From an uncultured delta proteobacterium (GTDB lineage Bacteria > Desulfobacterota > Binatia > Binatales > Binataceae): DNA of 64,000 nucleotides. Made by a program: the position numbers and the translations under genes. Below, piece by piece: positions 29,907 to 53,803 of the stretch (positions are counted from its first letter, which is position 1; every line of letters begins with the position of its first letter). The notes beneath the pieces are model-generated. The model saw nothing but the letters and a program-made list of their open reading frames with translations, did not search any database and was not told the origin of the DNA. Where the stretch lies: positions 2,676,144-2,740,143 of the forward strand of contig CAWKOR010000001.1 in the NCBI GenBank assembly GCA_963851325.1, written 5' to 3'.

Positions 29907-31172
29907 TCAGGCGGCGGCGCGGCTGCGTGCCATCAGGCGTGCGAAACGAAACGATGGAAATGGAATTTCGCCATTGGCCATCTGTGCGAAACGCACCATC
30001 TCTTCGGCCGCCCAGCCCTCGCGATTGGCCGCCAGATGAGCGCGCAGCGAGCTGCGATCGAGCCCCAGATGCTGCGAGACTTTCAGGCTCGCTTTATAAT
30101 ATGGCATCAGCGCGGCGTCGCGCCGCGAAGTGAATTCATTCATGGCGTAGCGACTAACGAATTCTCCTCGCGATGCCTCGAACCACGAGGGCGCGAGTTC
30201 GCCGAATATTTCCGCGCCGAGCAGCGCGAACGAATGTCCCTGGCCGAACAGCGGATCGACATGCAGGCCGGCATCGCCGAGCAGGATAGCGCCGTCGCAC
30301 AGTGGGTCACGCCAGGTATTCAGCAAAAGGCCCGACGAACGAATTTTTCCGACCATCCGCGCGCCTCTGAGAATTTCGCCCAGAACCGACGAATCGCCTA
30401 TGTAGCTCATGAAGTTGGATGAAAGATCGGTGCGGAAGTCGCGCATTTCGCGAGCATCGAATGCGACTCCCACCACCACCAGGTCGCCGTTGCATCGGCA
30501 GGCGAGGCTCGCGGTCCCGGGGCTGGTTTCGAATTCAGTGATCAGCGCGCCATCAAGTTTGGCTCGCGGCACTCCTTCGAAGTATGCGTAATAGTAAGCG
30601 CGCGCGCAGGGCACGTCCTTACGTTCGAACGCGCCGATTTTTTCCGCCGCGAGTCTTGCGAAGGTGCTGCGAAGGCCATCCGCGGCAATCACCAGCGGCG
30701 CCTCGAAAACGTGCGTGCCGGAGGAATCCTCGCCGCGAATTCCCGCGATGACGCCATCGTTGACCACGATATCCGTGACGCGGAATTGCTCGCGCATCGC
30801 GACGCATTCGATGCTTCGTGCGGCGTCGGCCATCGCGGAGTCCATTTTGTCGCGGGTCAGGCACAATCCTCGGAGGTCTTTGGAATTCTCGAGTTGCGCC
30901 GAGTAGTCGAATCCGGGACCGACCGTGCGCATCGAGCAGAAGCGTACGCCGCCCAAGCGCTCCAGCGTTTCGAGCATGCCGAGCCGATCCAGCACTTGAG
31001 TCCCGCCCGCGAGCACAATGTGGGTTGAGATAGTGTCGGAAGGAAAGGCGCTTTTGTCGACGAGCAAAACCTTAAGGTGCTTGCGTCCCAGCATGATCGC
31101 GGCGGCGGAGCCGGCGACACGGGCGCCCACGATGATCGCATCGAAGTTCTGTGCGGCGGAAGACACGCACAA
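29907..31172 (-). CDS. FAD-dependent oxidoreductase (geranylgeranyl reductase / flavin monooxygenase-like)
   Basis: N-terminal Rossmann-like FDAIIVGARVAGSAAAIML and a DG...ALLGDAG FAD-binding core. The track ORF extends to 31265, but that extension reads through a terminator hairpin. The start is probably TTG/GTG near 31166-31172. Confidence 0.7.
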   Translation of the reverse strand: MCVSSAAQNFDAIIVGARVAGSAAAIMLGRKHLKVLLVDKSAFPSDTISTHIVLAGGTQVLDRLGMLETLERLGGVRFCSMRTVGPGFDYSAQLENSKDLRGLCLTRDKMDSAMADAARSIECVAMREQFRVTDIVVNDGVIAGIRGEDSSGTHVFEAPLVIAADGLRSTFARLAAEKIGAFERKDVPCARAYYYAYFEGVPRAKLDGALITEFETSPGTASLACRCNGDLVVVGVAFDAREMRDFRTDLSSNFMSYIGDSSVLGEILRGARMVGKIRSSGLLLNTWRDPLCDGAILLGDAGLHVDPLFGQGHSFALLGAEIFGELAPSWFEASRGEFVSRYAMNEFTSRRDAALMPYYKASLKVSQHLGLDRSSLRAHLAANREGWAAEEMVRFAQMANGEIPFPSFRFARLMARSRAAA

Positions 31173-31211
31173 ATAGTGCGGCGCTGAATGGTCGTGCGCA
31201 AGGCGTGCGCG

Positions 31212-31252
31212 GCAAAAGAAAGAGCCCCCTTTTTCAAGGGGGCTCTCCCCGT
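31212..31252 (-). terminator. rho-independent terminator on minus strand (AGAGCCCCC-ttgaaaaa-GGGGGCTCT followed by TTCTTTTG)
   Basis: 9-bp GC-rich stem plus a T-rich tract when read on the minus strand, downstream of the small lysine-rich ORF. Confidence 0.7.
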
Positions 31253-31349
31253 TTTGCGAGGCCATCGAAAGCCTCGGCTTAATCCAGCAGCAGTTCCGGC
31301 ATCTGGCCAGCCTCCGGAACGATCATTCCGGAGGGAAACTTGTCAAAAG

Positions 31350-31451
31350 TTACTTCTTCTTCTTTTTGGGGGCTTTCTTTTTCATAGCACTCTTTAACTT
31401 TGGTTTGGATTTGGTCGCCCTTTTTGGGGCCTTCTTTCTCGAAACTGGCAT
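31350..31451 (-). CDS. hypothetical 33-aa lysine-rich basic peptide (MPVSRKKAPKRATKSKPKLKSAMKKKAPKKKKK)
   Basis: ATG 5 nt downstream of GAGGAGG. TAA stop, followed about 100 nt later by a strong intrinsic terminator. Lies in an unusually AT-rich intergenic segment. Below the ORF-track size cutoff. Confidence 0.3.
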   Translation of the reverse strand: MPVSRKKAPKRATKSKPKLKSAMKKKAPKKKKK

Positions 31452-31660
31452 AGACACCTCCTCTCTTTTTGCCGCTGCTGGAGAAGCACCCTTCGTATTA
31501 GATAGCCTTTGCTATCTGTGCTGATGGCAGCCACTATATAAATGCGTTATGCAGAACGCAATAGGTTGCGAGGCCAATATATAAAGAAATTTTAAAGTGG
31601 GAACAAAGCCGGATGTACCGATGCTTTTCATCCCACGGATGCGTTTTATTCATTAGCCCG

Positions 31661-31696
31661 CTTGAATTGACACGGCCCCCTGCTTTACCATTGACG
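31661..31696 (+). promoter_or_regulatory. putative sigma70-like promoter upstream of ftsB-like gene (TTGACA-N17-TACCAT)
   Basis: A TTGACA hexamer followed 17 bp later by TACCAT, immediately 5' of the 31699 ATG. Lies in the AT-rich segment. Confidence 0.3.
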
Positions 31697-31698
31697 CG

Positions 31699-32112
31699 AT
31701 GTTTCGCTTAAGTAACTGGTTCCGGCGCGAGTGGGCCAATCTAATGCTGTCGGCGATCCTCGTGGGGTTGCTCGGCAACGCCTTGCTGGCCGCGATGGGC
31801 CCCCGTGATCTGCTCCTTCTGCGCGATCGACGCGCGCAGTTGGAGGCGCAGCGGACCGAACTGATAGTTCGCAAAGCCGGACTTGAAACGACCGTTCAGA
31901 ACTTACGTTCAAATGATCGCTACCTCGAGCATCGCATCCGCACCGAACTCGGCTACGCGCGTCCGGATGAAATGGTTTACAAATTCACCGCGGACGCATC
32001 GTCGGATCCGCGCCAGAGTCCGCCTGAAACCACTCGTAGCAAAACTCGCCGATCTGTAATTGCAGGCCTGACGCTGGAACTCCTCTCCGAGATCGGAGTC
32101 GTTCACCGATAG
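31699..32112 (+). CDS. ftsB: septum formation initiator family protein (FtsB/DivIC-like)
   Basis: Short cytoplasmic N-terminus, a single TM (LMLSAILVGLLGNALLAAM), then a coiled-coil (RDRRAQLEAQRTELIVRKAGLETTVQNLR). Confidence 0.6.
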   Translation: MFRLSNWFRREWANLMLSAILVGLLGNALLAAMGPRDLLLLRDRRAQLEAQRTELIVRKAGLETTVQNLRSNDRYLEHRIRTELGYARPDEMVYKFTADASSDPRQSPPETTRSKTRRSVIAGLTLELLSEIGVVHR

Positions 32113-34791: not shown

Positions 34792-35220
34792 TTGGGCAAC
34801 GTCATCGGCTGGCTACTGGTTTTTCACTTGTTCGGGGTGATCTTCTGGATTGGAAGCTTGCTCCTAATCGCGAGCCTGCTCGCGATGGTCTCCGACGAAG
34901 TGGGAGTCGCGAAAGAGCGCTTCATCATGGTCGCGAGCACTCTGTTCTATGGCGGATGCAATATCGGCGGCGCGGTAACGCTTATCTTCGGCATCCTCCT
35001 GATGGTGATGGTGCCGGACGTTCTGCGCCACGGATGGTTTCACGTCAAACTGACCTTCGTGTTCATCCTGCTGCTGGTGCACCTTCGACTGCATCGCAGA
35101 ATCGTCGCGTTGAGCGACAACCCTTCCTCGGTAACGCGGGCGGAGTTTCGCGTCATTCATGGAGTCGTCAGCGTGGTGTTGCTGGCCATCCTCGTGATGG
35201 CGCTCCTTAGGCCGTTCTAG
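34792..35220 (+). CDS. small polytopic membrane protein, HemJ/CopD-like (UPF0093/TIGR00701-like)
   Basis: 142-aa ORF with four hydrophobic helices, WLLVFHLFGVIFWIGSLL and a conserved His in helix 1. TTG start 7 nt after AGGAGA, 17 nt after the MFS stop. Confidence 0.45.
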   Translation: MGNVIGWLLVFHLFGVIFWIGSLLLIASLLAMVSDEVGVAKERFIMVASTLFYGGCNIGGAVTLIFGILLMVMVPDVLRHGWFHVKLTFVFILLLVHLRLHRRIVALSDNPSSVTRAEFRVIHGVVSVVLLAILVMALLRPF

Positions 35221-35300
35221 TGGTCGAAATCTGCTACAATGCGGATCGCGGCCTTCCTTGAGCCGTGCGTCGATACGGTCATGACGCGAGCACTGATGTG

Positions 35301-35474
35301 GAAATTACCAAACGAACCCACCGAGGGGACGGCATCGGCGAGCGAAAGGTGAAAAACAAACCCATTAAGGGAGCTCGGAACGATCGTCATGCTGAGGTCG
35401 GAATTACATAAACGAACCCACCGAAGGAACTCTGTCGGCATAGGGAAAATTGAAAAAACAAACCCATTAAATCG
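35301..35474. repeat. intergenic repeat locus B: alternating motif types ATTAC(C/A)(A/T)AAACGAACCCACCGA (x2) and AAAAACAAACCCATTAA (x2) in two ~100-bp tandem units
   Basis: Copies at about 35301-35328, 35349-35371, 35401-35427 and 35450-35474. Same family as loci A and C. In a convergent intergenic region. Confidence 0.7.
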
Positions 35475-35660
35475 AGGAAAATAAAGGGTTTTCTTCCAGA
35501 CAATCGGTCGCGCAATCCCCGATCATGTCGTGCTGTTCTCCCCACTCTCATCCGCCCGTCACGGTTCTCGCATCGAAGCCAGCGCGAGAACCGCGCCAAG
35601 CGCCTTCTCTCGCTAGCGAGCGCAGCGACTCATTGGAGTATCGACACAATGTCGGTAAGC

Positions 35661-39934: not shown

Positions 39935-40888
39935 ATGAAGCAAATTAAAGTCGGAGTTGGGTTCGGATTGTGGCGCCTCGGGATGCCCGCGCCGGAGACC
40001 ATCGTCAAGGTCGCCGAGCGCGCCGAGGACTGGGGCCTCGATTCTTTCTGGCTCTCCGACCATCTGCTGTCGCCCTCCCCCGAGCTCGATGTCATCGCGA
40101 CGCTTTCCCTGCTGGCCTCGCGCACCTCGCGCATGAAGCTGGGGCCCAGCGTGTTGCTGCTCAACCTGCGCCATCCCCTGCTGGTCGCGAAAGCCTTTGC
40201 ATCGCTCGACTATCTCTCCAAGGGCCGGATGGTGATGGCGGTCGGCACCGGCGCGAACCTCGCCGACTATGCCGCATGCGGCATACCTACCGAGGGGCGC
40301 GGCAAGCGGCTGGAGGAAGGCATCGAGGTCCTGCGCACCGTGTGGCGGGAGAAGAACGCCAGCTACCACGGGCGCTTCTTCAACTTCGACAATATCACCA
40401 TCGAGCCGCGGCCGGTGGCGCGTACCAACAATGACTTCGGCACCATGGACATCTGGGTCGGTGGCAAATCGGAAGCGGCGCTGAAACGAACGGCGAAGAT
40501 GGGTGACGGATTTTTCGCCTCGTTCCAGACCCCCGACGAATACGCCCGGAGCATGGCTTCGATTCGCAAATACGCGGTCGAATTCGGACGCGCCAACGCA
40601 CACATCGAGTCAGGTCTCATCCTGCTATGTCGCATCGCCAGCTCGCGGCAGAAGGCGCTCGATGAAATGGAGCCGATGCTCAAGGCGCTCGGACGCGGCG
40701 CCGAGCAGTTCCTCGAGCGCACCGTCTACGGCACTGCCGAAGACGTCATCGGGCGCGTTTCGGAGTACACCGGGCACGGATTGGACAAATTCGTGCTATG
40801 GCCCATCGCCACTCCTGATGCGTGGGCGAAGCAGGTCGAGTTAGTCGGCAGCGAGATTGCGAATCACTATATGAAAGTGGCTGCCTGA
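39935..40888 (+). CDS. LLM class (luciferase-like) flavin/F420-dependent oxidoreductase
   Basis: Luciferase-like TIM barrel (DSFWLSDHL...). ATG 7 nt after GGGAGA. Confidence 0.8.
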   Translation: MKQIKVGVGFGLWRLGMPAPETIVKVAERAEDWGLDSFWLSDHLLSPSPELDVIATLSLLASRTSRMKLGPSVLLLNLRHPLLVAKAFASLDYLSKGRMVMAVGTGANLADYAACGIPTEGRGKRLEEGIEVLRTVWREKNASYHGRFFNFDNITIEPRPVARTNNDFGTMDIWVGGKSEAALKRTAKMGDGFFASFQTPDEYARSMASIRKYAVEFGRANAHIESGLILLCRIASSRQKALDEMEPMLKALGRGAEQFLERTVYGTAEDVIGRVSEYTGHGLDKFVLWPIATPDAWAKQVELVGSEIANHYMKVAA

Positions 40889-40890
40889 CG

Positions 40891-41487
40891 ATGCGGCGCG
40901 TCCTCCCATCGCGAATCGCGATTTCGATAGTGCTCGTGATGGCCGGCGCCCTGCTTGCGGGATGCAGCAAGACGCCGGCGCCAGTCGCCTCCAGCGCGAC
41001 GACGCGCTTCGCCAGTGCCGGGCAGGTCGAGGAGAACTTCCGCGGGAGAAGTTTCATCCTCGGCGACAATGCAGCCATCGCGATGGTGCGGCCGGTCGAT
41101 TCGCCGAAAGATCAATGGCTCAGGTTGCCCTTCTGGTTCGGCATCAACCCGATGGTTCCGGGCTCGCTGCAACCGAAGGAAGGCGACTACTACGTCATCA
41201 GCGAGGCGCGCCTGATCAAGACGCTTGACACCCCCGGCGAATGGATGATCGAGGCCGGCAGCTCGATGATCAAGCGGCAAACCGTCCTGCAGACCACCCG
41301 CACACACTACCTGGGCACCGGGAAAATTCTTCCAACCGTGGTGCAGTTCATTGGGATGCGCGATTTCAAGACCGAGGACGGCAAGACCATCCAGATGCCT
41401 ATCCTGCGCGAGGTTTCGCTCCCGATGAAGTGGACCCTGGGTGGTGGCGGCGTTCCTGCCAGTTACGCGAGGTTTCGCAGCGGATGA
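40891..41487 (+). CDS. hypothetical lipoprotein (paralog 1 of tandem pair)
   Basis: Lipobox LLAGCS. Shares blocks LPFWFGINPMVP / THYLGTGKILPTVVQFIG / PILREVSLPM with the next gene. Confidence 0.5.
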   Translation: MRRVLPSRIAISIVLVMAGALLAGCSKTPAPVASSATTRFASAGQVEENFRGRSFILGDNAAIAMVRPVDSPKDQWLRLPFWFGINPMVPGSLQPKEGDYYVISEARLIKTLDTPGEWMIEAGSSMIKRQTVLQTTRTHYLGTGKILPTVVQFIGMRDFKTEDGKTIQMPILREVSLPMKWTLGGGGVPASYARFRSG

Positions 41488-42119
41488 AGCTTCTGAGGCG
41501 AGTTATCAGCGCAATCGCGATCGTCATTACACTCTCGGCATGCACCCCGGACAAGGCTATGGACTTCGGGCCGACCGGCGAGATCGATACCGCGCCCGCG
41601 GACGAGCTCAGCCGGCAGATTTTGCACGACTTCAATGGACGCGATTTCGAGCTCGGCACCAACGATCGCGAAGCAGTGGTGCGGCTGACCGATTGGCCCG
41701 AGGGCAAGCATGTCATCATCCCATTCTGGCTGGGGATAAATCCGCTGATGCCGTACTTCCACCGTCCGCAAATCGGCAGAATTTACGTGATGAGCGAATC
41801 GGTGATGGTGCGTGAGCTGAGTAAGAATCGCTATCTGATTCGCGCCGGCTCCAAGGCCTTCAAGAGCGATGCGATCTTCGAGGCAACCCATACTCACTAC
41901 GACGGCAGCGGCAAGATGCTGCCGACGGTGGTGCGCTTCGTCGGCACCGAGGTCGCGACCTTAGCCCTCGATGCGCCGCGGACTGGAACTATCACTGAGA
42001 AGGTTCCGGTGCTGCGCGAAATTTCGCTCCCGATGCGTATCGAAGCGGTGAAACCCGGCTACGCGAAGTTCACGGTGATGCAGCAGGTGCCATCACCTCC
42101 GACCGCCGATCGCGGCTGA
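41484..42119 (+). CDS. hypothetical lipoprotein (paralog 2 of tandem pair)
   Basis: Lipobox LSACTP. Blocks IPFWLGINPLMP / THYDGSGKMLPTVVRFVG / PVLREISLPM. Start overlaps the paralog 1 stop (ATGA). Confidence 0.5.
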   Translation: MKLLRRVISAIAIVITLSACTPDKAMDFGPTGEIDTAPADELSRQILHDFNGRDFELGTNDREAVVRLTDWPEGKHVIIPFWLGINPLMPYFHRPQIGRIYVMSESVMVRELSKNRYLIRAGSKAFKSDAIFEATHTHYDGSGKMLPTVVRFVGTEVATLALDAPRTGTITEKVPVLREISLPMRIEAVKPGYAKFTVMQQVPSPPTADRG

Positions 42120-42220
42120 TTCTTGTAATGGCTAAATTGCGCTCGAACCCCAGTCGAAACCGCGATGCCCCGGCTGTTTTGAGCCGCCGTCTGGAGCCAT
42201 TCGATCAGCCCCGGCATCAG

Positions 42221-42622
42221 CTATCTCACGACCACTTGCTTACTGACTGTTACGATGCTGGTCAGACCGTCGCTGCTTTGCTCGGTGCTTGTTTGCGACT
42301 GAAGAGTTTGAGCACCTGCCGAAGGTTGGCACATGAACACGCCCGGGACCGACATGAACATGGCTGAACATATACTTGCGTGTTGAACTCCGATCACGAC
42401 AAACCCCGCGTACCAAGTCCCATCGTCGAGTTGGCCAGTCGAGTATGAGTGCGTCATACTCCAGTTCGGCAGCATGTTCAGCTGCCAATTTACATCGCCC
42501 AGAGATTGATAGCCGCACTCATCGATCGCTATGTAGCATTGCTTTGCAAGTGCGCTGTTAGTCGTCATGAGGATCGCCAGAGCAACCAGTGCAAACTGAC
42601 CGACCATTCGAAGAAATTTCAT
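42221..42622 (-). CDS. hypothetical secreted Cys-containing protein (~133 aa) in lower-GC islet
   Basis: Signal peptide MKFLRMVGQFALVALAILMTTNSALA. No recognisable domain. Local GC is about 52% versus about 65% in the flanks. Confidence 0.4.
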   Translation of the reverse strand: MKFLRMVGQFALVALAILMTTNSALAKQCYIAIDECGYQSLGDVNWQLNMLPNWSMTHSYSTGQLDDGTWYAGFVVIGVQHASICSAMFMSVPGVFMCQPSAGAQTLQSQTSTEQSSDGLTSIVTVSKQVVVR

Positions 42623-43144
42623 TGACCCGCTCCCCGACGAAACTTTTGCATTTCTCTGCGTCCTCGTTCTCGACGGATAGATGCAGGAGCAACTAACCTG
42701 CCAAAGTTCCCTCGTCGCTGAGGTTGGGTTGATCGCCACTGGTGTCAGTGCAAAGCAGACCGTTCTAGCGCCTCGAAAAGTGCATGGAACCAACGGCTCT
42801 CGCCAGCATCGTGAGTCCGAACGATGCAACAAGCAGTTTATCTGACTCGATCGGCAGCACCGGCGGTGAATGAAGGTTGCTCCGGTGCATCGCAAACTGA
42901 ACCGGCGCTACTTGTGGAGCGTTAGGCATTCCTGTTCTGTCCTCAGCGTCGCATACTCAGTCTTTCGCGACCATTTTGTTGGTGCTTCAAATGAGGATTT
43001 CCAAATCATCGTCGCGCCAATCGCTGATCGCGCCGACTGCTGGCCACCCTGAGTTTTGGTCAATCGGCAGGAATCCGCGCTACGCCAAGTGACCGGAAAT
43101 CACCATTTTCGGTATGCTCTTCTGGAAACGCAGTCTGGAGAAAT

Positions 43145-43402
43145 CTAGAGGACTGGAAACACCGCCGCGTCAGTCATCAGGCTTGCGAAGCTCGCCGCGG
43201 TCGGGCGGAAGATTTGCCAGGGTTCGGCGTGGCGGAACCAGATGCGATGGTAGAAGCCTCGCGCCGGATTCCAATCCAGCACCGCGAGATCGATGCGCGC
43301 GCATCCGCGTGACTTCGCGATCTTCGCGACCGCCGCGATGAGCTTGCGCCCGATGCCCGATTTGCGCGCCGACTCCTCGACAAAAATATCTTCGATGTAG
43401 AG
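43145..43402 (-). pseudogene. truncated duplicate of GNAT acetyltransferase 3' half (fragment)
   Basis: About 240 nt that are >90% identical at the nucleotide level to 44308-44548. Encodes ...YIEDIFVEESARKSGIGRKLIAAVAKIAKSRGCARIDLAVLDWNPARGFYHRI... but lacks the N-terminal half. Confidence 0.6.
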
Positions 43403-43490
43403 GCAGAGCGGCGGCACCTGGAGGCGTGATTGCGCAGTCAACAGCTTGGCGGGCCCGTCAATTAAGTAAACGTTGAGAGGTTTTGGACTG

Positions 43491-44114
43491 ATGACAGAAA
43501 GCGACTTTTCAGTTCCACTACGGGTTGAAAGGCTGATGCGGGGATTCCGTCCTCCGTGGGCTATTGCTGGCGGATGGACGATCGATTTGTACCTTGGCCG
43601 CGTTACCAGGCGCCATAAGGACGTCGAGATTGCGATATTTCGAGGCGATCAATGCAAGCTACATACTCATCTTTCACCAGGGTTCGACCTACGCTTAGTG
43701 CGAAATGGCAGGGCCGGTCAGCCAGCTCGTCGCGAGCCGTGGAGTGTCGCGCACCGATTGGAATCGTCGATACATCAACTCGAAGCGATCGATAGAGCTG
43801 ACGGCTTTGTCCTGGAGATCCTGCTAGACGAGCGCGACAACGGCAACTGGCGCTTTCGTCGTAATTTGAGAATTTGCATGCCGCTTGAGTCAGCAATCAA
43901 GACCAGCGAAGTCGCCGCCGTCCCACACATAGCTCCCGAAATCGCACTACTATTCAAAGCAAAGAAACCTCGCGCCGAGGATGAAGCAGACTTTCGCCAG
44001 GTACTGCAGATCTTGCCGACGCAATCGCGAGATTGGCTCAAAGCAGCTGTGAACCAATGCCATCCGGGGCACGGTTGGTCTCATCTGCTAGGCGGTCCGA
44101 ACCGAAGTTCGTAA
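43491..44114 (+). CDS. aminoglycoside 2''-nucleotidyltransferase family protein (ANT(2'')-Ia/AadB-like, PF10706)
   Basis: WAIAGGWTIDLYLGRVTRRHKDVEI closely parallels the AadB core W-GGGWAIDxxLGRVTRKHxDxD (nucleotidyltransferase GS motif + DxD). Confidence 0.75.
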   Translation: MTESDFSVPLRVERLMRGFRPPWAIAGGWTIDLYLGRVTRRHKDVEIAIFRGDQCKLHTHLSPGFDLRLVRNGRAGQPARREPWSVAHRLESSIHQLEAIDRADGFVLEILLDERDNGNWRFRRNLRICMPLESAIKTSEVAAVPHIAPEIALLFKAKKPRAEDEADFRQVLQILPTQSRDWLKAAVNQCHPGHGWSHLLGGPNRSS

Positions 44115-44287
44115 GAAGATCGTTTGTGGAGATGATGTTTTGCAATCTCAGTCTCCAGAATGCCCTGAATTTACATCGATTACAAAAGTCCTTACGCCTA
44201 CCTCGCCAAAGATCCGGCGTACGAACTCGAACCCGAACTGGATCTACGGCTGAAGTGGCTTCCGTACACCCTCCACATTCCGGATTT

Positions 44288-44791
44288 CTAAGCGACTGGA
44301 AAATCCGCGCCTTCGTCGATCAGGTTGGCGAAGCTCGACGCGGTCAGGCGGAAAATCTGCCAGGGCTCAGCGTGGCGGAACCCGATGCGATGGTAGAAGC
44401 CCCGCGCCGGGTTCCAATCCAGCACCGCGAGATCGATGCGCGCGCATCCCCGCGACTTCGCAATCTTCGCGACCGCTGCGATGAGCTTGCGCCCGATGCC
44501 CGATTTGCGCGCCGACTCCTCGACGAAAATATCTTCGATGTAGAGGCCTGGCTTTCCTTCCCAGGTCGAGTAGTTCGGAAAGAACAGCGCGAAGCCGGCC
44601 GGCTTGCGATCGACTTCCGCGATTAGAACTTCGAAGCGGCGAGTAGGCCCGAAGCAGTCGCGAAGTACGTCGGCCTCGGTAATCTTTACCTGCTCGACTG
44701 GTTCCTTTTCGAAGATCGCCAGCGCGCGAATGAAGTGTACGATCAGCGCCGCGTCGCGCTCGGTTGCCCAACGGATGCGAGTCTCTGCCAT
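44288..44791 (-). CDS. GNAT family N-acetyltransferase (diamine/SSAT-like)
   Basis: Acetyl-CoA binding motif A (VEESARKSGIGRKLI), STWEGKPGLYIEDIFV. Start taken at the internal Met MAETRIRWATE. Confidence 0.8.
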   Translation of the reverse strand: MAETRIRWATERDAALIVHFIRALAIFEKEPVEQVKITEADVLRDCFGPTRRFEVLIAEVDRKPAGFALFFPNYSTWEGKPGLYIEDIFVEESARKSGIGRKLIAAVAKIAKSRGCARIDLAVLDWNPARGFYHRIGFRHAEPWQIFRLTASSFANLIDEGADFPVA

Positions 44792-44833
44792 CAAAGGTTC
44801 CTCGCTATCAGAGACGATCGATTTCACGGCGTA

Positions 44834-46210
44834 TCAAGACCTGCCCGCTTCCTCGGGCGATATCGTTTCGAGTTCCAAGCCCGCGGTTTCGGGAAAGAAC
44901 AGCAACATGATGATTCCGGGCACGAACCACGCGAGCGTCACGTATCGAATCGCGACCCAATGCGACCCGGTCGAGCGAAACAGCAGCCCCTCGAGGAAGA
45001 AGCCCAGCGCGCCGCCGGTGGTGCCTGTGACTGCCAGCACACTGCCGGCGGTTGAGCGGTAGGAGGTCGGGAACAGCTCCGCACTATAGGCGGTTCCGAT
45101 GGTGCTCGAGGCGACATCAAAGAACAGCAGAAAGATCCAGATCGGAATTACCGCGCTGAACGAGGTGCCAAAGACCGGCAGCGTGAATCTCGCCGAGCTG
45201 TACGAGGAATACAAGAAGATCGCGAGCAGCGGCGCCAAAAGGTAGAAAAATGCGCCCATCCGGCGGCGTCCGAAACGATCGCTCATCCGCCCGGATACGA
45301 TATTGCCCATGATGCCGAGCGCGCCGCCGATGAAGTACAGGCTGGAAACATTGCCCGGCGACCAGCCATGCGCTTCCTGCAAATACTTCGAGAAGAAAAA
45401 TCCCTGCGGGTTCCCGCCCAGGTTGCCCGCGAACGACGCCGCCACCAGCATCAGCAAGCGTCCCGGATACGCGCTGAACAGCGCCTTCAAGGGCGCCAGG
45501 ATGTTGCGCGGCCCGCTCCCTTCTAGCTGTTCGCGCTCGAAGCGCCGGCTCTCCGGCAACGCCCGACGCAACGGAATGATCAGCACCAGTGGAATCAGCG
45601 CCAGCGCATACAGCCCGCGCCATCCGTATGGAACTACGTTGATGCCGGCGAAGGCCAGCGCCGCGATCCCGAACCCGACCGAGGATAGTGCGGCGAGCAG
45701 ACCGATGGCCCATCCGCGCACTCCGGCATCGACCTCCTCGGACAGGATCACGAGCGCGATGGTTCCTTCCGCGCCGGCAAAAACGCGCGCCAGCATTTGG
45801 CATGCGACGAAGACGTTTGCGTTGGGAGCGATCGCGGCGAGGCCGGTGAAGAGCGTGTAGGCAACCACGGTGTAGAGCAGCAACCGGCGGCGGCCGAAGA
45901 CGTCGGCGAGCGGGGTTACCAGCAGCGAGCCGATGTAACCGAGACGGATCAGCGTGAGCATGTTGCCCAGCGCGCGTTCGGAAATCTGGAGGCCTTTCTG
46001 GATCTGTTTCAGCGCAAGAGTCAGCAGCGCCCGATCATACTGATCGAAAAATCCAGCCGTGGTCGCGATCAGAAAAACGCGGCGCTGACGCTTGGTAAAT
46101 GGTGGCGTTCGGCCAAAGAATCCGAGTGGGATGCCCCAGCGTTCTTCCTCCGGTGAAGCTTCGATGGTGTTCTGTTCGGCGCCATCGACAATCGGTAACG
46201 GCTCGCTCAC
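44834..46210 (-). CDS. MFS transporter
   Basis: 12-TM MFS with motif GRMSDRFGRRR. Confidence 0.85.
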   Translation of the reverse strand: MSEPLPIVDGAEQNTIEASPEEERWGIPLGFFGRTPPFTKRQRRVFLIATTAGFFDQYDRALLTLALKQIQKGLQISERALGNMLTLIRLGYIGSLLVTPLADVFGRRRLLLYTVVAYTLFTGLAAIAPNANVFVACQMLARVFAGAEGTIALVILSEEVDAGVRGWAIGLLAALSSVGFGIAALAFAGINVVPYGWRGLYALALIPLVLIIPLRRALPESRRFEREQLEGSGPRNILAPLKALFSAYPGRLLMLVAASFAGNLGGNPQGFFFSKYLQEAHGWSPGNVSSLYFIGGALGIMGNIVSGRMSDRFGRRRMGAFFYLLAPLLAIFLYSSYSSARFTLPVFGTSFSAVIPIWIFLLFFDVASSTIGTAYSAELFPTSYRSTAGSVLAVTGTTGGALGFFLEGLLFRSTGSHWVAIRYVTLAWFVPGIIMLLFFPETAGLELETISPEEAGRS

Positions 46211-46261
46211 AAGGCCTCCCCGCTTGAAATGATCGAGTAGTCAGATTTCACGTCAGGTGGC

Positions 46262-47548
46262 CTATTCAATCGCCATCGGAAGCGCGGCAAGTCCACGCAG
46301 GAAGTATGAGCCCTTGTATTGCAACTTCGCGCCGGGCTCCCGCAGCCGGAGATGGGGAAACCGCTGCAGCATCGCAGAGAATGCAATTTGCGCCTCGAGG
46401 CGGGCCAGCGGCGAGCCGATGCAAAAGTGGATGCCCTCTCCGAAGGCCAGGTGATCATTGGGATCGCGCGTAATGTCGAAGCGATCGGGGTCCGGGAACT
46501 GGGCCGGATCACGATTGGCCGCCGCCAGGATCACGAAGATCGGAAATCCCGCCGGGAAAAACGTCCCGCCCAGTTCGATGTCGCTCTTGGTGAAGCGCGC
46601 GGTCGATTGCACCGGCCCGTCATAGCGCAGCATCTCCTCGATCGCGCGCGGCAACAACGACGCCTCGCGTTGCAGCATCTTCATCTGATCGGGATTGCGC
46701 CCCAGCGCCAGGGTTCCGTTGCCGATCAGGTTGGTAGTGGTTTCATTTCCCGCCAGCAACAGCAGGATGACGAAGGCCATCAGCTCGTCGGCACTCAACG
46801 CTTCGGATTCGGTATGCGCGGTGACCAGCGCGCTGACCAGGTCAGGCCCCGGGGTTTGGCGCCGCTTCTCAATTTGCGCGGAAAAGTAAGCGCGCAAATC
46901 GTCCACCGAGGAGGTGAATTCTGGCGGCACCGGATTTCCCGGCAAGGTGTTGTCGCCGGCGATTATCGCATCGGACCAGCGCTTGAAGGTCGCGTAGAGG
47001 TCGCGCTCGACCCCCAGCATCTCGGCGATCACCATCACCGGGAGCGGATTGGCAAGGTCGCCCATCACCTCGAAGCTTCCCCGTTCGGCGACTTTGTCGA
47101 GCAGCATGTTGGTGAGCTCGCGGATGCGCGGCTCCAGCTCGCGAATTCGCCGCGGCGTGAAGTCGCGGCTCACCAGCTTGCGCAGGCGGGTATGCACCGG
47201 GGGGTCCGAGAAGAGCATCGTGGGCGCACCCTTGAAGGGCCCACGTTCTCGTTCCATCACATCGAGCTCTGACTCGCGGGCGGGACGCGCGCTGGAAAAA
47301 TGCTCCGGGTCCCGAAGCAGCTTCAGGCAATCCTGGTAGCGCGTGGCAAGGCCGGTTGGCAGCGGAATTTCTTTGACGCCCGCGCCCTCGATACCAAACA
47401 TCTTCAGCAACTCGGGAGTCGCCGGGATGGTGATGTTGATGATGCGCGGAGGCCCGGCCAGCATCGCCTTGTAATGCGGATAAGGATTGGCCCGAAACTC
47501 CGGGTCCCATTGATTGAAATAGATTTCTTGCGCTGCTGATTCAGGCAT
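46262..47548 (-). CDS. cytochrome P450
   Basis: Heme-binding FGEGIHFCIGSPLARLE, ExxR and I-helix AGNETT. Confidence 0.9.
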   Translation of the reverse strand: MPESAAQEIYFNQWDPEFRANPYPHYKAMLAGPPRIINITIPATPELLKMFGIEGAGVKEIPLPTGLATRYQDCLKLLRDPEHFSSARPARESELDVMERERGPFKGAPTMLFSDPPVHTRLRKLVSRDFTPRRIRELEPRIRELTNMLLDKVAERGSFEVMGDLANPLPVMVIAEMLGVERDLYATFKRWSDAIIAGDNTLPGNPVPPEFTSSVDDLRAYFSAQIEKRRQTPGPDLVSALVTAHTESEALSADELMAFVILLLLAGNETTTNLIGNGTLALGRNPDQMKMLQREASLLPRAIEEMLRYDGPVQSTARFTKSDIELGGTFFPAGFPIFVILAAANRDPAQFPDPDRFDITRDPNDHLAFGEGIHFCIGSPLARLEAQIAFSAMLQRFPHLRLREPGAKLQYKGSYFLRGLAALPMAIE

Positions 47549-47776: not shown

Positions 47777-48994
47777 TTACGCTGCAACCATCGGCAGAGC
47801 CTTCAGGCTGCGCACGAAGAACGACGTCTTGTAGTCCAGCTTGGGTTGGCCGTCGAGCCGGAGTTGCGGGAAGCGATCCAGCATACTGCCGAAGGCGACC
47901 GCCCCCTCCAGCCGCGCCAGTGGGGCTCCCAGGCAGTAGTGAATTCCTTCGCCGAAGGAGAGATGATCGTTTTCCTCGCGGGTGATGTCGAACACGTCGG
48001 GGCGCTCGAATTTGGCGGCGTCGCGATTGGCCGATCCCACCATCAGGAAAACGCCGCTGCCCTTTTCGATCAGGGTGCCGCCAATTTCGGCCTCTTCTTT
48101 GGCGGTGCGAAAAACCGACTGCACCGGGCTGTCGTAGCGCAACATTTCCTCGATTGCGCGTGGCAGCAGCGTCGGATCGCGGCGCAGCAGTTTCATCTGC
48201 TCAGGATGCTCCTGCAGCGCCAGCATCCCGTTGCCGATCAGGTTGGTGGTGGTTTCGTTGCCCGCGATCAGCAGGATGACCAGGAATTGCATCAGTTCGC
48301 CGGCGCTCAGCATTTCCGTATCTTCGTGGGCGGAAACCAGCGAACTCATCAGGTCGGTGCCGGGATGACGGCGCCGACGCTCGATTTCCTCGGCAAAGTA
48401 ACCGCGCATCTCGACCAGGTTGCCGCGCACTGAGTCCGCCATCGGGGTACCGGGCGGCAAACTGGTCAACTCGATCAGCGTATCCGACCAGCGCTTGAAG
48501 GTTTCGTAGCGTTCACCCGGAATGCCGAGAATGCTGGCGATGATTCTGACCGGAAGCGGAATCGCGAAATCAGCCACCAGATCGAAGTGGCGCTTCTGTG
48601 CGACCTCGTCAAGCAGCGCATTGGTGAGCGCGCGCACCCGCGGTTCCAGTTCGCGGATCGCACGCGGGCCGAAATCGCGGCTGACCAGCTTGCGCATGCG
48701 GGTATGAATCGGCGGATCGGAACTGACGATGCTGGGCGCGTCGCCGAAGACTTCGGCGGTCTCGGTCGTCATCCGATTGCGCACCGGCACGCTGGAGAAG
48801 CGGATTTGATCGCGCAACGTCGCCAGCACGTCGGCATAGCGCGAAATGATGGCGACCGGAATGAAGAAGCGCAGCACCGGGGGCGGGCTGGTTCGAAGCG
48901 GCTGATAGAAGGAATAAGGATTGCGCCGAAAATTCTCGTCCCATGGATTGAAGGTCAGTCCAGCGCCGGCGGCTTGCTCAGCCATTCCACTCAT
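47777..48994 (-). CDS. cytochrome P450
   Basis: Heme-binding FGEGIHYCLGAPLARLE and I-helix AGNETT. Paralogous to the downstream P450. Confidence 0.9.
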   Translation of the reverse strand: MSGMAEQAAGAGLTFNPWDENFRRNPYSFYQPLRTSPPPVLRFFIPVAIISRYADVLATLRDQIRFSSVPVRNRMTTETAEVFGDAPSIVSSDPPIHTRMRKLVSRDFGPRAIRELEPRVRALTNALLDEVAQKRHFDLVADFAIPLPVRIIASILGIPGERYETFKRWSDTLIELTSLPPGTPMADSVRGNLVEMRGYFAEEIERRRRHPGTDLMSSLVSAHEDTEMLSAGELMQFLVILLIAGNETTTNLIGNGMLALQEHPEQMKLLRRDPTLLPRAIEEMLRYDSPVQSVFRTAKEEAEIGGTLIEKGSGVFLMVGSANRDAAKFERPDVFDITREENDHLSFGEGIHYCLGAPLARLEGAVAFGSMLDRFPQLRLDGQPKLDYKTSFFVRSLKALPMVAA

Positions 48995-51850: not shown

Positions 51851-52704
51851 CGTGCGATCACCTCATTGCCCATTTTCTCGAGTCCGCGGGTCAGGCCCTC
51901 CTGATCGAACGCGGGAGGCGGCACTACCACCCGCGTAATGCCGATGTCCTCAAACGCCTTGAGCACCTCGGGCTTCGCGCGGCCCATGCATGACAACTCG
52001 ATATGGGTCGCGGCGCGGCCGGCCTTCTGCGCCTCGGTGGCCATCATCGCGAATAGTTCTTTGAGCTTGGGAATTTCACCGAGCGCGGGAAAGAAGCCAT
52101 CGCCATAGCGTCCCGCACGCTTCGCAGCGGCCGGCGAATGCCCACCCACGATGATCGGGATGCCGCTCTTGTTGAATGGCTTGGGGTACATCTTCACGTT
52201 ATCGAAGCTGTAATGCTTACCGTGAAAAGTCGCGGCGCCATCGCTCCAGAGTGCGCGCATCGCTTTGATCGCCTCATCGGTCATCGCGCCACGCTGGTGA
52301 AAATCCAGCCCCAGCGCCTGGAACTCTTCCGCGAGCCATCCGCTCCCGATGCCGAGCAGCAAGCGCCCCTTGGATAGCTGATCGATGGTGGCGGTTTCCT
52401 TCGCGACATAGATCGGGTGGCGCTGCGGAAGAATCAGGATGCCGGTCGCGAGTTTCAGGTTTTTGGTCAGCGCCGCGGCGAATGACAGCGGCTGCAATGG
52501 ATCGGGGATCGAAACGTCCTCACCGCCGGGAATTTTGCCGGTCGACGAGTATGGATACGGAGATTTGTAGTCGTGCGGAATGACGACATGCTCGACGGTC
52601 CAGATCGATTCGATGCCAACCTTCTCGGCGGTGGTTACGAGATGGGCGAAGAGATCGGGATTGGTGAAAGGTCCGGAATTGGCGAACATCAGACCGATTT
52701 TCAT
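51847..52704 (-). CDS. LLM class (luciferase-like) F420/flavin-dependent oxidoreductase
   Basis: Luciferase-like TIM barrel. Start at the internal Met MKIGLMF, 7 nt after GAGG. The track ORF extends further upstream. Confidence 0.8.
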   Translation of the reverse strand: MKIGLMFANSGPFTNPDLFAHLVTTAEKVGIESIWTVEHVVIPHDYKSPYPYSSTGKIPGGEDVSIPDPLQPLSFAAALTKNLKLATGILILPQRHPIYVAKETATIDQLSKGRLLLGIGSGWLAEEFQALGLDFHQRGAMTDEAIKAMRALWSDGAATFHGKHYSFDNVKMYPKPFNKSGIPIIVGGHSPAAAKRAGRYGDGFFPALGEIPKLKELFAMMATEAQKAGRAATHIELSCMGRAKPEVLKAFEDIGITRVVVPPPAFDQEGLTRGLEKMGNEVIAR

Positions 52705-52927
52705 AGCTGCCTCGCAAGTAGTGGATTCGCGACAATTTAGCGCGGGCACGCAAATGAATGAAACGCATTTCGCCAAGTCGAGGAGAGTGCTTTTGTTAGG
52801 CTGAGGATCTTGGCGTGCCGAAGAACAGAAAGCTGACGCGTGTCGTAATTGATGACGATGCTTTGATTGAAGAGGCAATGCGCCAGCCTTGAGCATCGGG
52901 CGATGCCTGCGCTACTTAGGGATCACT

Positions 52928-53803
52928 ATGGAACTCGGAAAAGTTGGATTGTGGTTTTTCCTCGATGCGATGACTGCGCCGCAAAGCGCGGAGTTCGCGC
53001 AAAAGGTCGAAAAACTCGGCTACCAAACCCTCTGGATTCCCGAGGCGGTCGGCCGCGAACCATTTCCCCATGCGGCTTATCTGCTCGACAAGACCAGCCG
53101 CCTCAACATCGCCACCGGCATCGCCAATATTTATGGACGCGACCCGATTACGATGTCGGCCGCTTCCAAGACGGTGGCGGAGCTCTCCGGCGGACGCTTT
53201 CTGCTTGGAATCGGCGTAAGTCACAAGCCGCTGGTCAGCAATCTGCGCGGGCACAGCTATGACAAGCCCTACTCCTACATGAAGGAGTATCTGCCCAAGA
53301 TGAAGAGTGCCCTCTATCAGGCGCCCGCGCCCAAGGAGCCGGTGCCGGTGGTGCTGGCCGCGCTGCATCCCAAAATGCTCGCGCTCTGCGCCGCCGAGAC
53401 ACAGGGGACGCATACCTACTTCGTGCCGCCGGAGCATACCGCCAAGGTCCGCGCGCAAATCGGTCCGAAGCCGTGGATCTGCGTCGAGCAGAAGGTCATC
53501 CTCGACACCGACGCCAGCAAGGCTCGCACCGCCGCGCGCCACTTCATGAAGACCTACGTGCCGCGGCTGCCCAACTACACCAACAACCTCAAGAACCTGG
53601 GGTGGAAGGACGAGGAGTTCGAGAACGGATGCAGCGATCGGCTGGTCGATGCGATCGTAGCGTGGGGCACCGAGACCCAAATCAACGATCGCATCCAGGC
53701 GCATTTCAAAGCGGGCGCCACCCACGTCTGCATCCAGCCACTGCGCACCGACATGGCGAACTTGCCTGATGAACGTGCGATGGAAGCATTGGCGCCGAAA
53801 TAA
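52928..53803 (+). CDS. LLM class (luciferase-like) F420/flavin-dependent oxidoreductase
   Basis: Luciferase-like TIM barrel (MELGKVGLWFFLDAMT...). Start at the internal Met. Confidence 0.8.
   Translation: MELGKVGLWFFLDAMTAPQSAEFAQKVEKLGYQTLWIPEAVGREPFPHAAYLLDKTSRLNIATGIANIYGRDPITMSAASKTVAELSGGRFLLGIGVSHKPLVSNLRGHSYDKPYSYMKEYLPKMKSALYQAPAPKEPVPVVLAALHPKMLALCAAETQGTHTYFVPPEHTAKVRAQIGPKPWICVEQKVILDTDASKARTAARHFMKTYVPRLPNYTNNLKNLGWKDEEFENGCSDRLVDAIVAWGTETQINDRIQAHFKAGATHVCIQPLRTDMANLPDERAMEALAPK

Follow-up and report, generated by a model that had tools for sequence, protein, structure and literature searches.

A gene encoding a 207-amino-acid nucleotidyltransferase (NTase) in an uncultured bacterium of the Candidatus Binataceae sits inside a short insert flanked by two pieces of one acetyltransferase gene. 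The analysis covered a stretch of 64,000 nucleotides, here called the window (GenBank assembly GCA_963851325.1, contig CAWKOR010000001.1, positions 2,676,144 to 2,740,143). The intact NTase open reading frame (ORF; 43491-44114, plus strand) lies between a GNAT acetyltransferase fragment and an intact GNAT gene. We propose, at about an even chance, that it belongs to a foreign module of ~770 bp that integrated downstream of a native MFS transporter-GNAT gene pair by using the 3′ half of the GNAT gene as an anchor. Read from left to right, the locus consists of a low-GC islet, the GNAT 3′ half, the NTase module, a relic of a DsbA-like gene, and the intact GNAT gene. Candidatus Binataceae and Binatia belong to an uncultured soil phylum (PMC8262859). 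An earlier note on this DNA had seen here an inserted NTase gene and, linked to its insertion, a duplicated GNAT 3′ half, a view that holds up, given that relatives lack both elements and that the NTase gene looks compositionally foreign. Its anatomy of an NTase gene between GNAT pieces was sound, and what it overlooked were the DsbA-like relic at 44169-44288, the boundaries of the module, and the copies of the module elsewhere.

Alignment of the two GNAT regions placed the ends of a direct repeat at 43144-43404 and 44287-44547, with GGC at the junction (261 nt; 89.3% identity; BLAST E value, ~1e-97; spacing, 1143 nt). On the right, the repeat forms the 3′ half of the intact GNAT gene (167 aa; 44288-44791, minus strand); on the left, it is a truncated ORF on the same strand that retains only 86 C-terminal codons together with the stop codon and corresponds to codons 83-167 plus the stop of the intact gene. 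The core of this repeat, described before as a GNAT copy of more than 90% identity at 43165-43402, is 90.3% identical within those limits, and the full repeat is longer. The ORF running through the fragment (43145-43441, minus strand) matches PF00583 with 47.8 bits, and its GC content at third codon positions (GC3) is native-like, at 0.79.

The NTase module occupies positions 43402-44169 (plus strand) and holds a single ORF with ~89 nt upstream and ~55 nt downstream, limits that are set by homology to copies elsewhere. Positions 43402-44135 are 93.5% identical to six JGI contigs (L001 to L006), in which the gene lies between two NUDIX genes; positions 43439-44169 are 97.2% identical to at least nine contigs (L007 and L095 to L102), in which the module stands between an SDR gene and a GST/glutamine synthetase III cluster; and positions 43460-44162 match L068 at 92.6% identity, where the surroundings are different again. 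The flanks of the module in all of these contigs are unrelated to those in the window. By context, its left end falls at 43402, 43439, or 43460 and its right end at 44135, 44169, or beyond 44194. Since L095 and L068 share 25 nt past the point where the module ends on the right in the window, 44169 is a true breakpoint here, and it adjoins the DsbA-like relic. At the left junction (43402-43404), the GNAT homology stops at ...GTAGAGGC, and the homology to L001 begins at GGCAGAGC. The left end of the module is thus the end of the GNAT homology to the base, with GGC common to both; this trinucleotide is shared between the GNAT sequence and the native left flank of the module, as seen in L001, and constitutes a microhomology at the joint.

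The composition of the module points to a foreign origin. Its GC content is 0.544, and the GC3 of the NTase gene, part of the GC and codon check suggested in the earlier note, is 0.54 compared with 0.75 to 0.79 for the native GNAT, MFS, P450, LLM oxidoreductase, and lipoprotein genes, so that the NTase gene appears compositionally foreign to this genome. The module stands out as foreign to the same degree in L096 (flanks, 0.69 to 0.79), whose host is also a member of the Binataceae (its glutamine synthetase III is 86 to 88% identical to proteins named for Binataceae), and it is near the local composition in L068 and L001. Synonymous divergence (dS) among the module copies is 0.05 to 0.10. The NTase copy in L007 (617-1239) is frameshifted, and the one in L095 (4001-4624), in a context that is 99.8% identical, is intact; the frameshift may be taken as a sign of a dispensable gene.

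The NTase region is separated from the GNAT stop codon by the relic of a third gene (44169-44288, plus strand; 120 nt, 40 codons), which was found by tblastn and corresponds to residues 8-47 of a DsbA-like/2-hydroxychromene-2-carboxylate-isomerase-like protein; it is followed by TAA and adjoins the GNAT stop codon. Compared with an intact 196-aa gene in the related locus L008, 37 of the 40 residues are identical (E value, 2e-21), and the nucleotide identity to the L008 and L009 genes is 79 to 83%. Both of these loci have an intact DsbA-like gene in convergent orientation to GNAT, 8 nt past the GNAT stop codon. The relic lacks the first seven codons and ~150 codons at its 3′ side, and its 3′ deletion joint, TAGAA/ATCC, shows a GAA microhomology against both L008 and L009. 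A 3′ remnant of the DsbA-like gene to the left of the GNAT fragment was limited to a weak "FWKRSLE" match (E value, 4.3), which we take as chance.

Orthologous loci were collected with the MFS transporter (44834-46210, minus strand; PF07690, 114.8 bits), 6 nt upstream of GNAT, as the anchor. The scan returned 60 related loci, nearly all from metagenome-assembled genomes of Candidatus Binataceae/Binatia (55 to 93% identity). The eight closest (MFS 56 to 93% identical) all carry P450, MFS, and GNAT genes in the same order, most of them with a second P450 gene, and their GNAT orthologues, 73 to 88% identical, always follow the MFS gene. We regard the GNAT gene, on this conserved synteny, as the last gene of a native MFS-GNAT pair. 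Neither an NTase gene nor a second GNAT piece is present in any of the eight loci, and the NTase gene and the GNAT fragment therefore appear to be lineage-specific additions, the opposite of the old, stable arrangement that the earlier note had named as an argument against an insertion. The sequence 3′ of the GNAT stop codon (TAGA, then unrelated) diverges in each relative at the very first or second base, and the genes after GNAT differ as well. The point after the GNAT stop codon is thus a recurrent synteny break and variable hotspot, which accounts for the end of both repeat copies at the stop codon. A sliding identity scan placed the 3′ half of the window's MFS gene closest to L008 (0.86 to 0.92); from ~44850 into GNAT, identity to L008 drops to 0.70 to 0.85, and the best matches are then L009 and L011. 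Such a switch points to recombination near 44850, where MFS meets GNAT, in one of the lineages.

The two GNAT pieces are each other's closest relatives (88.8% identity versus at most 83.7% to any orthologue) and are separated by a dS of 0.30 and a nonsynonymous divergence (dN) of 0.072. The 29 differences between them were polarized against the eight orthologues. On the branch of the fragment, this gave ~4 synonymous and ~10 nonsynonymous nucleotide changes, among them G56W, L68P, and D82V at positions that are invariant in the eight orthologues, and on the branch of the intact gene, 8 synonymous and ~4 nonsynonymous changes. These branch-wise counts suggest that the fragment, described before as a truncated pseudo-copy and indeed holding the C-terminal part only, is a decaying pseudogene and that the intact GNAT copy is under purifying selection. 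The dS of 0.30 is several-fold (3 to 6 times) the divergence of the module from its other copies. Because the GNAT pieces are so much more diverged than the module, a recent copy made in situ would not explain both values, and descent of the two GNAT pieces from two diverged Binataceae lineages would be the better fit.

The arrangement also occurs in sequences from outside this assembly record. Contig L094 is 99.35% identical to positions 41795-43935, which include a lipoprotein gene, the islet, the GNAT fragment, the junction, and the 5′ part of the NTase gene, and contig L093 is 99.96% identical to positions 44155-46681, which include the last 14 nt of the module, the relic, GNAT, MFS, and P450. 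Both come from one JGI metagenome, both end inside the module, and positions 43936-44154 are covered by neither, a pattern to be expected when several genomes in one community share the module sequence. The same pattern is what an assembly chimera would leave, in which halves from different loci or strains had been joined through the NTase repeat in communities where several genomes carry the module. We consider such a chimera very improbable: the window is part of a 4.34-Mb contig, and the combination of the module 5′ part with the fragment in L094 and of the module 3′ end with the relic in L093 is as one continuous copy predicts. The arrangement is not an artefact of this assembly record alone, and a small doubt attaches to the central ~220 nt of the NTase gene. 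As a separate observation on these two near-identical strains, 6 of the 14 differences between L094 and the left side of the window fall within 290 nt of the NTase gene (43578-43865), and L093 has a single difference in 2527 nt on the right side; allelic exchange may take place between the module and the copies of it found elsewhere in the community.

As anchor-mediated integration would predict, a direct copy of the anchor stands on each side of the insert, and one of the two is truncated. Under the proposed integration, the incoming DNA would have come from a related Binataceae lineage and carried the NTase module, the DsbA-like relic, and the GNAT 3′ half, possibly with more of the GNAT and MFS genes, and the recipient chromosome would have had GNAT followed by the islet. 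One exchange, a homologous one, would have taken place within GNAT or further into the GNAT/MFS operon, and the other would have been an illegitimate join at the GGC microhomology at 43402-43404. Single-crossover (Campbell-type) integration of a circular molecule and homology-facilitated illegitimate recombination (HFIR) of a linear molecule would both yield the same product, namely, the islet, the GNAT 3′ half, the module, the relic, and an intact GNAT gene, after which the half-copy would decay as a pseudogene. The NTase gene would be expressed from its own conserved upstream region, functionally independent of GNAT. In Escherichia coli, a circle that carried part of lacZ and integrated by single crossover left duplications of 109 to 950 bp on both sides of the insert (PMC3240628), and HFIR has been proposed for orphaned 3′ gene remnants in type VI secretion system/Rhs loci (PMC5361080, citing de Vries and Wackernagel 2002, Prudhomme et al. 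2002, and Meier and Wackernagel 2003 for the process). The locus resembles both in having an intact anchor copy on one side and a partial direct duplicate on the other, one illegitimate joint at a short GC-rich microhomology, and an orphaned 3′ remnant. It differs in that the process is read from the scar alone and the copies are 11% diverged, and in the relic of a third gene inside the insert and an 8-nt inverted repeat close to both ends of the module.

Several points weigh against this integration. The loci collected include neither a donor with the module, the DsbA-like relic, and GNAT in succession nor a recipient with the islet next to an intact GNAT gene; relatives have the orthologous locus without the insert, but none has the islet directly after GNAT. 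In the donor, two earlier events are still required: the module must have inserted within the DsbA-like gene at its 5′ end, and ~450 nt of that gene must have been deleted. The polarization of the GNAT differences is noisy, with outgroups at a dS of ~0.8 and small counts, and the branch of the fragment looks neutral over most of its length, in which case the fragment could predate the module. The identity scan does not show which lineage carries the breakpoint near 44850, and it could be that of L008. Among close copies, the dN/dS of the NTase gene is 0.44 to 0.90, a sign of weak constraint, and the 8-nt inverted repeat at both junctions is left unexplained by the integration model.

If the fragment is the older element, two unrelated events could have built the locus, the fragment being an old relic of a previous rearrangement at the hotspot and the module having landed later at its edge. 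The excess of the dS between the GNAT pieces (0.30) over that of the module, the neutral-looking decay of the fragment, and the different rearrangement of this region in every relative all favor such a history. We nevertheless consider it unlikely, at perhaps one chance in five: a coincidence to the base between the left end of the module and the end of the GNAT homology, with microhomology, would be unexpected of independent events, and no relative has the fragment but lacks the module. Somewhat less probable still is an in situ tandem duplication of the unit formed by the module, the relic, and the GNAT 3′ half through unequal exchange at GGC once the module had inserted beside GNAT, after which the left copies of the module and relic were deleted or replaced and the islet was brought in. 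The joint between the fragment end and the module start is exactly the novel joint that this would create, and the two GNAT pieces are indeed mutual closest relatives. However, an extra deletion would be needed that ended one base past the stop codon of the fragment, no second relic or trace of a module is seen to the left of 43144, the GNAT pieces are 3 to 6 times as diverged as the module, and the branch of the intact copy carries 8 synonymous changes versus the ~3.4 expected from the neutral divergence of the fragment.

The recurrence of the module allows a further reading, which we rate as quite improbable, that the NTase gene is a new minimal mobile unit, consisting of a single ORF with ~30 to 90 nt upstream, that has entered at least four unrelated loci by an unrecognized insertion mechanism. 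The loci belong to Binataceae and to lower-GC soil bacteria and carry the module at 93 to 97% identity. Neither a recombinase nor terminal repeats of its own go with the unit, and its ends are not fixed. A perfect 8-nt inverted repeat, TCGATGTA at 43392-43399 and TACATCGA at 44172-44179, lies 3 to 5 nt outside both module junctions and could be the footprint of such a mechanism. Its arms are native coding sequence (GNAT "LYIE" and DsbA-like "IYID"), and by resampling such a repeat has a P value of ~0.006 if inverted repeats only are counted and 0.013 if inverted or direct ones are. An inversion between the two 8-mers was rejected, as neither possible inversion simplifies the structure, and so were fold-back and template-switch models, which predict inverted duplications where the observed duplication is direct. 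An integron gene cassette is the form in which aadB itself moves, and the module is like one in being a single promoter-proximal ORF of ~0.75 kb in several unrelated contexts. It differs in that its ends are ragged (three left and three right ends over four contexts) and not identical in every context, and the cassette origin was rejected; no attC-like R''/R' pair or array was seen at the module, and an integrase gene in the window was not searched for. The window contains no tRNA gene, so the insert is not a tRNA-linked island. Rfam models found no match at an E value of ≤1 over 40000-47000, and a scan for promoter and terminator consensus sequences performed no better than on shuffled sequence.

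The product of the NTase gene has a Pol-beta-type nucleotidyltransferase fold with an LnuA/ANT(2'')-like character. It matches PF10706 (Aminoglyc_resit) with 30 bits (E value, 6.7e-7; gathering threshold, 21), the match being limited to residues 17-65, or profile positions 4-52 of 149, and its motif reads W-AIAGGW-TIDLYLGRVTRRH-K-D-V-E. The core that the earlier note had quoted is therefore present, with AGGW in place of GGGW and D-x-E in place of D-x-D. The model of ANT(2'')-Ia (NF000064) gives 24.2 bits against a cutoff of 350, with residues 28-58 aligned, and phmmer against the PDB aligns only 33 N-terminal residues with ANT(2'')-Ia (E value, 1.7e-4; LnuA, 0.36). In the AlphaFold2 (AF2) model (pLDDT, 92), the top Foldseek matches in the PDB are LnuA (4fo1; E value, 2e-6; TM score, 0.55/0.69), MenT1 (8an5), ANT(2'')-Ia, and TM1012, all NTases at 14 to 18% identity. 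We thus rejected an identity with ANT(2'')-Ia, whose model the protein fails and which ranks in fold behind LnuA and MenT1. The former label of "AadB family" claims more than these matches allow.

The NTase shares with LnuA (4fo1) and ANT(2'')-Ia/AadB (4wqk, 5cfs, and 5kqj) the small (160 to 210 aa), two-lobed Pol-beta-type architecture and the N-terminal W-x3-GGW-x-D-x3-G-x5-H-x-D-x-[DE] motif (Foldseek E values, 2e-6 to 2e-5), and with LnuA, by eye, the C-terminal motif PE-x2-LLF-K/H ... D-x2-DF. It differs from them in its greater length (by 30 to 45 residues), in an additional beta-hairpin region at residues 65-105, and in the 14 to 18% identity. The features of the fold are in place, with an hG[GS] motif, the metal-binding pair D44-V-E46, and a third carboxylate, E109. 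G27-G28, D44, E46, and E109 are invariant or nearly so in 24 homologues, R123 is conserved too, and D44 and E46 align with D44 and D46 of ANT(2'')-Ia. On this conservation and alignment, the protein is predicted to be an active Mg-dependent nucleotidyltransferase that acts on a small molecule, like LnuA and ANT(2'')-Ia. The resemblance to MenT1 (Rv0078A), a tRNA-modifying NTase toxin (8an4/8an5), lies in the fold (Foldseek E value, 5e-6; TM score, 0.55 to 0.62) and in size; it differs in that no antitoxin gene travels with the module, which has a single ORF. No cognate adjacent antitoxin was found, the neighbors being different in the window, L001, L068, and L095, and PADLOC returned no defense-system match. 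Since nothing travels with the NTase gene and its neighbors differ everywhere, a toxin role seems unlikely.

A profile built from the 24 homologues retrieved 706 clusters at an E value of ≤1e-30 and 2338 at ≤1e-10 among 1.84 billion representatives, and the NTase therefore belongs to a large, uncharacterized LnuA/ANT(2'')-like family of proteins of ~190 to 210 aa. Among 38 longer members, 37 also match PF10706. GNAT is the commonest domain fused to the NTase in these 38 representatives (five or six cases), followed by NUDIX (two cases) and by single fusions to GrpB, methyltransferase, AAA_18, and ComB-type phosphatase domains; P0034, P0159, P0079, P0133, P0118, and P0142 are representatives with fused domains. 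In L091 (3293-4372), a GNAT gene is followed at 31 nt by a homologue of 45% identity. The fusions to GNAT and NUDIX and the adjacency may reflect loose clusters of small-molecule-modifying enzymes.

The intact GNAT protein, called SSAT-like in the earlier note, matches PF00583 with 68.9 bits and aligns over its full length with characterized SSAT-type proteins in the PDB (E values, 1e-17 to 1e-26), including GNAT8/NATA1, thialysine acetyltransferase, and SSAT1/2. Residues 5-154 align with 2fe7, 12jc, and 2bei at an E value of 1e-24 and with plant GNAT8/NATA1 at 1e-26, and this full-length similarity to characterized members is that of an SSAT-like diamine/thialysine N-acetyltransferase. The PaiA equivalog model gives 25 bits against a cutoff of 250. 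The likeness to the SSAT/thialysine N-acetyltransferases (2bei, 2b4d, 8yv7, and 8xj9) extends to the acetyl-CoA motif RKSGIGRKL; the difference lies in its setting here, with an MFS transporter as partner and two P450 genes ahead of it. These P450 genes, upstream of MFS-GNAT at 46262-47548 and 47777-48994 (minus strand), are adjacent paralogues of ~50% identity; the pair is kept in relatives, and L016 has three.

An NTase next to an acetyltransferase also recalls the repertoire of aminoglycoside modification, a pairing that the earlier note had raised as worth testing and that does not withstand these comparisons. If the two enzymes acted on one aminoglycoside or other antibiotic and their adjacency had been selected, the GNAT fusions in five or six of the 38 long family members, the homologue 31 nt after a GNAT gene in L091, the NUDIX fusions in two further representatives, and the two NUDIX genes that flank the module in L001 would be in keeping with it. 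Nevertheless, such a resistance cluster is hardly credible. GNAT is paired with MFS, and lacks an NTase neighbor, in the eight relatives; no GNAT gene is found in the other three contexts of the module; and the NTase gene is weakly constrained, with a frameshifted copy in L007. The NTase and GNAT genes are convergent and thus not cotranscribed. The NTase fails the ANT(2'')-Ia model, and GNAT is SSAT-like rather than AAC-like: its similarity to aminoglycoside acetyltransferases is at an E value of ~1e-4, and among the AAC models of NCBIfam, the best scores are 37.9 bits for AAC(6')-III (cutoff, 305) and 35.9 bits for AAC(6') group E (cutoff, 140). Because GNAT is natively paired with MFS, its adjacency to the NTase gene in the window is secondary.

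The low-GC islet (42120-43143) lies directly downstream of the stop codon of the GNAT fragment. Positions 42120-43140 have a GC content of 53.9%, a value as low as which is found in only 0.04% of windows of the same size, and the low GC reported before is thus real, at 53.9% and not the ~52% then given. The whole region from the islet through the relic (42120-44287) has the lowest GC content of any 2168-nt stretch in the 64 kb, at 54.8% (mean, 60.7%; standard deviation, 1.5). Further 500-nt windows with a GC content of 0.53 to 0.55 occur at 31001-32000, 35001-35500, and 52501-53000. The orphan secreted Cys-containing protein noted before is encoded by a 133-aa ORF at 42224-42622 (minus strand; GC3, 0.60), and the independent contig L094 carries it too. 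It is a true orphan, with no record outside this population: a search of 5.8 billion proteins retrieved nothing beyond the protein itself and a single near-identical copy from a metagenome (P0175), the 60 related loci contain no homologue, and tblastx of the islet against all loci found no match. Different secreted Cys-rich ORFs occupy the equivalent post-GNAT position in L013 (11902-12666) and L014 (12934-13695). To the left of the islet, 40822-41487 and ~41499-42119 (plus strand) are tandem paralogous lipoprotein-like genes that share short repeats and have no Pfam or NCBIfam match; their copy number varies among relatives, L011 having three.

Taken as a whole, the locus records a horizontal gene transfer that is well preserved but of an ordinary kind; it is neither an AadB gene nor an aminoglycoside-modification cluster, and it does not challenge current understanding. 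Its value is as a clean natural example of a foreign gene entering the chromosome of a member of an uncultured soil phylum via homology to a resident gene, with two dateable scars: a pseudogene made of half a gene, and the 40 codons that remain of a third. The PF10706 label "aminoglycoside-2''-adenylyltransferase" should not be read as denoting a resistance gene, as the NTase family comprises more than 700 clusters and is about equally close to LnuA and AadB. If a substrate of the NTase were found, the recurrent fusion and adjacency to GNAT and NUDIX would gain meaning.

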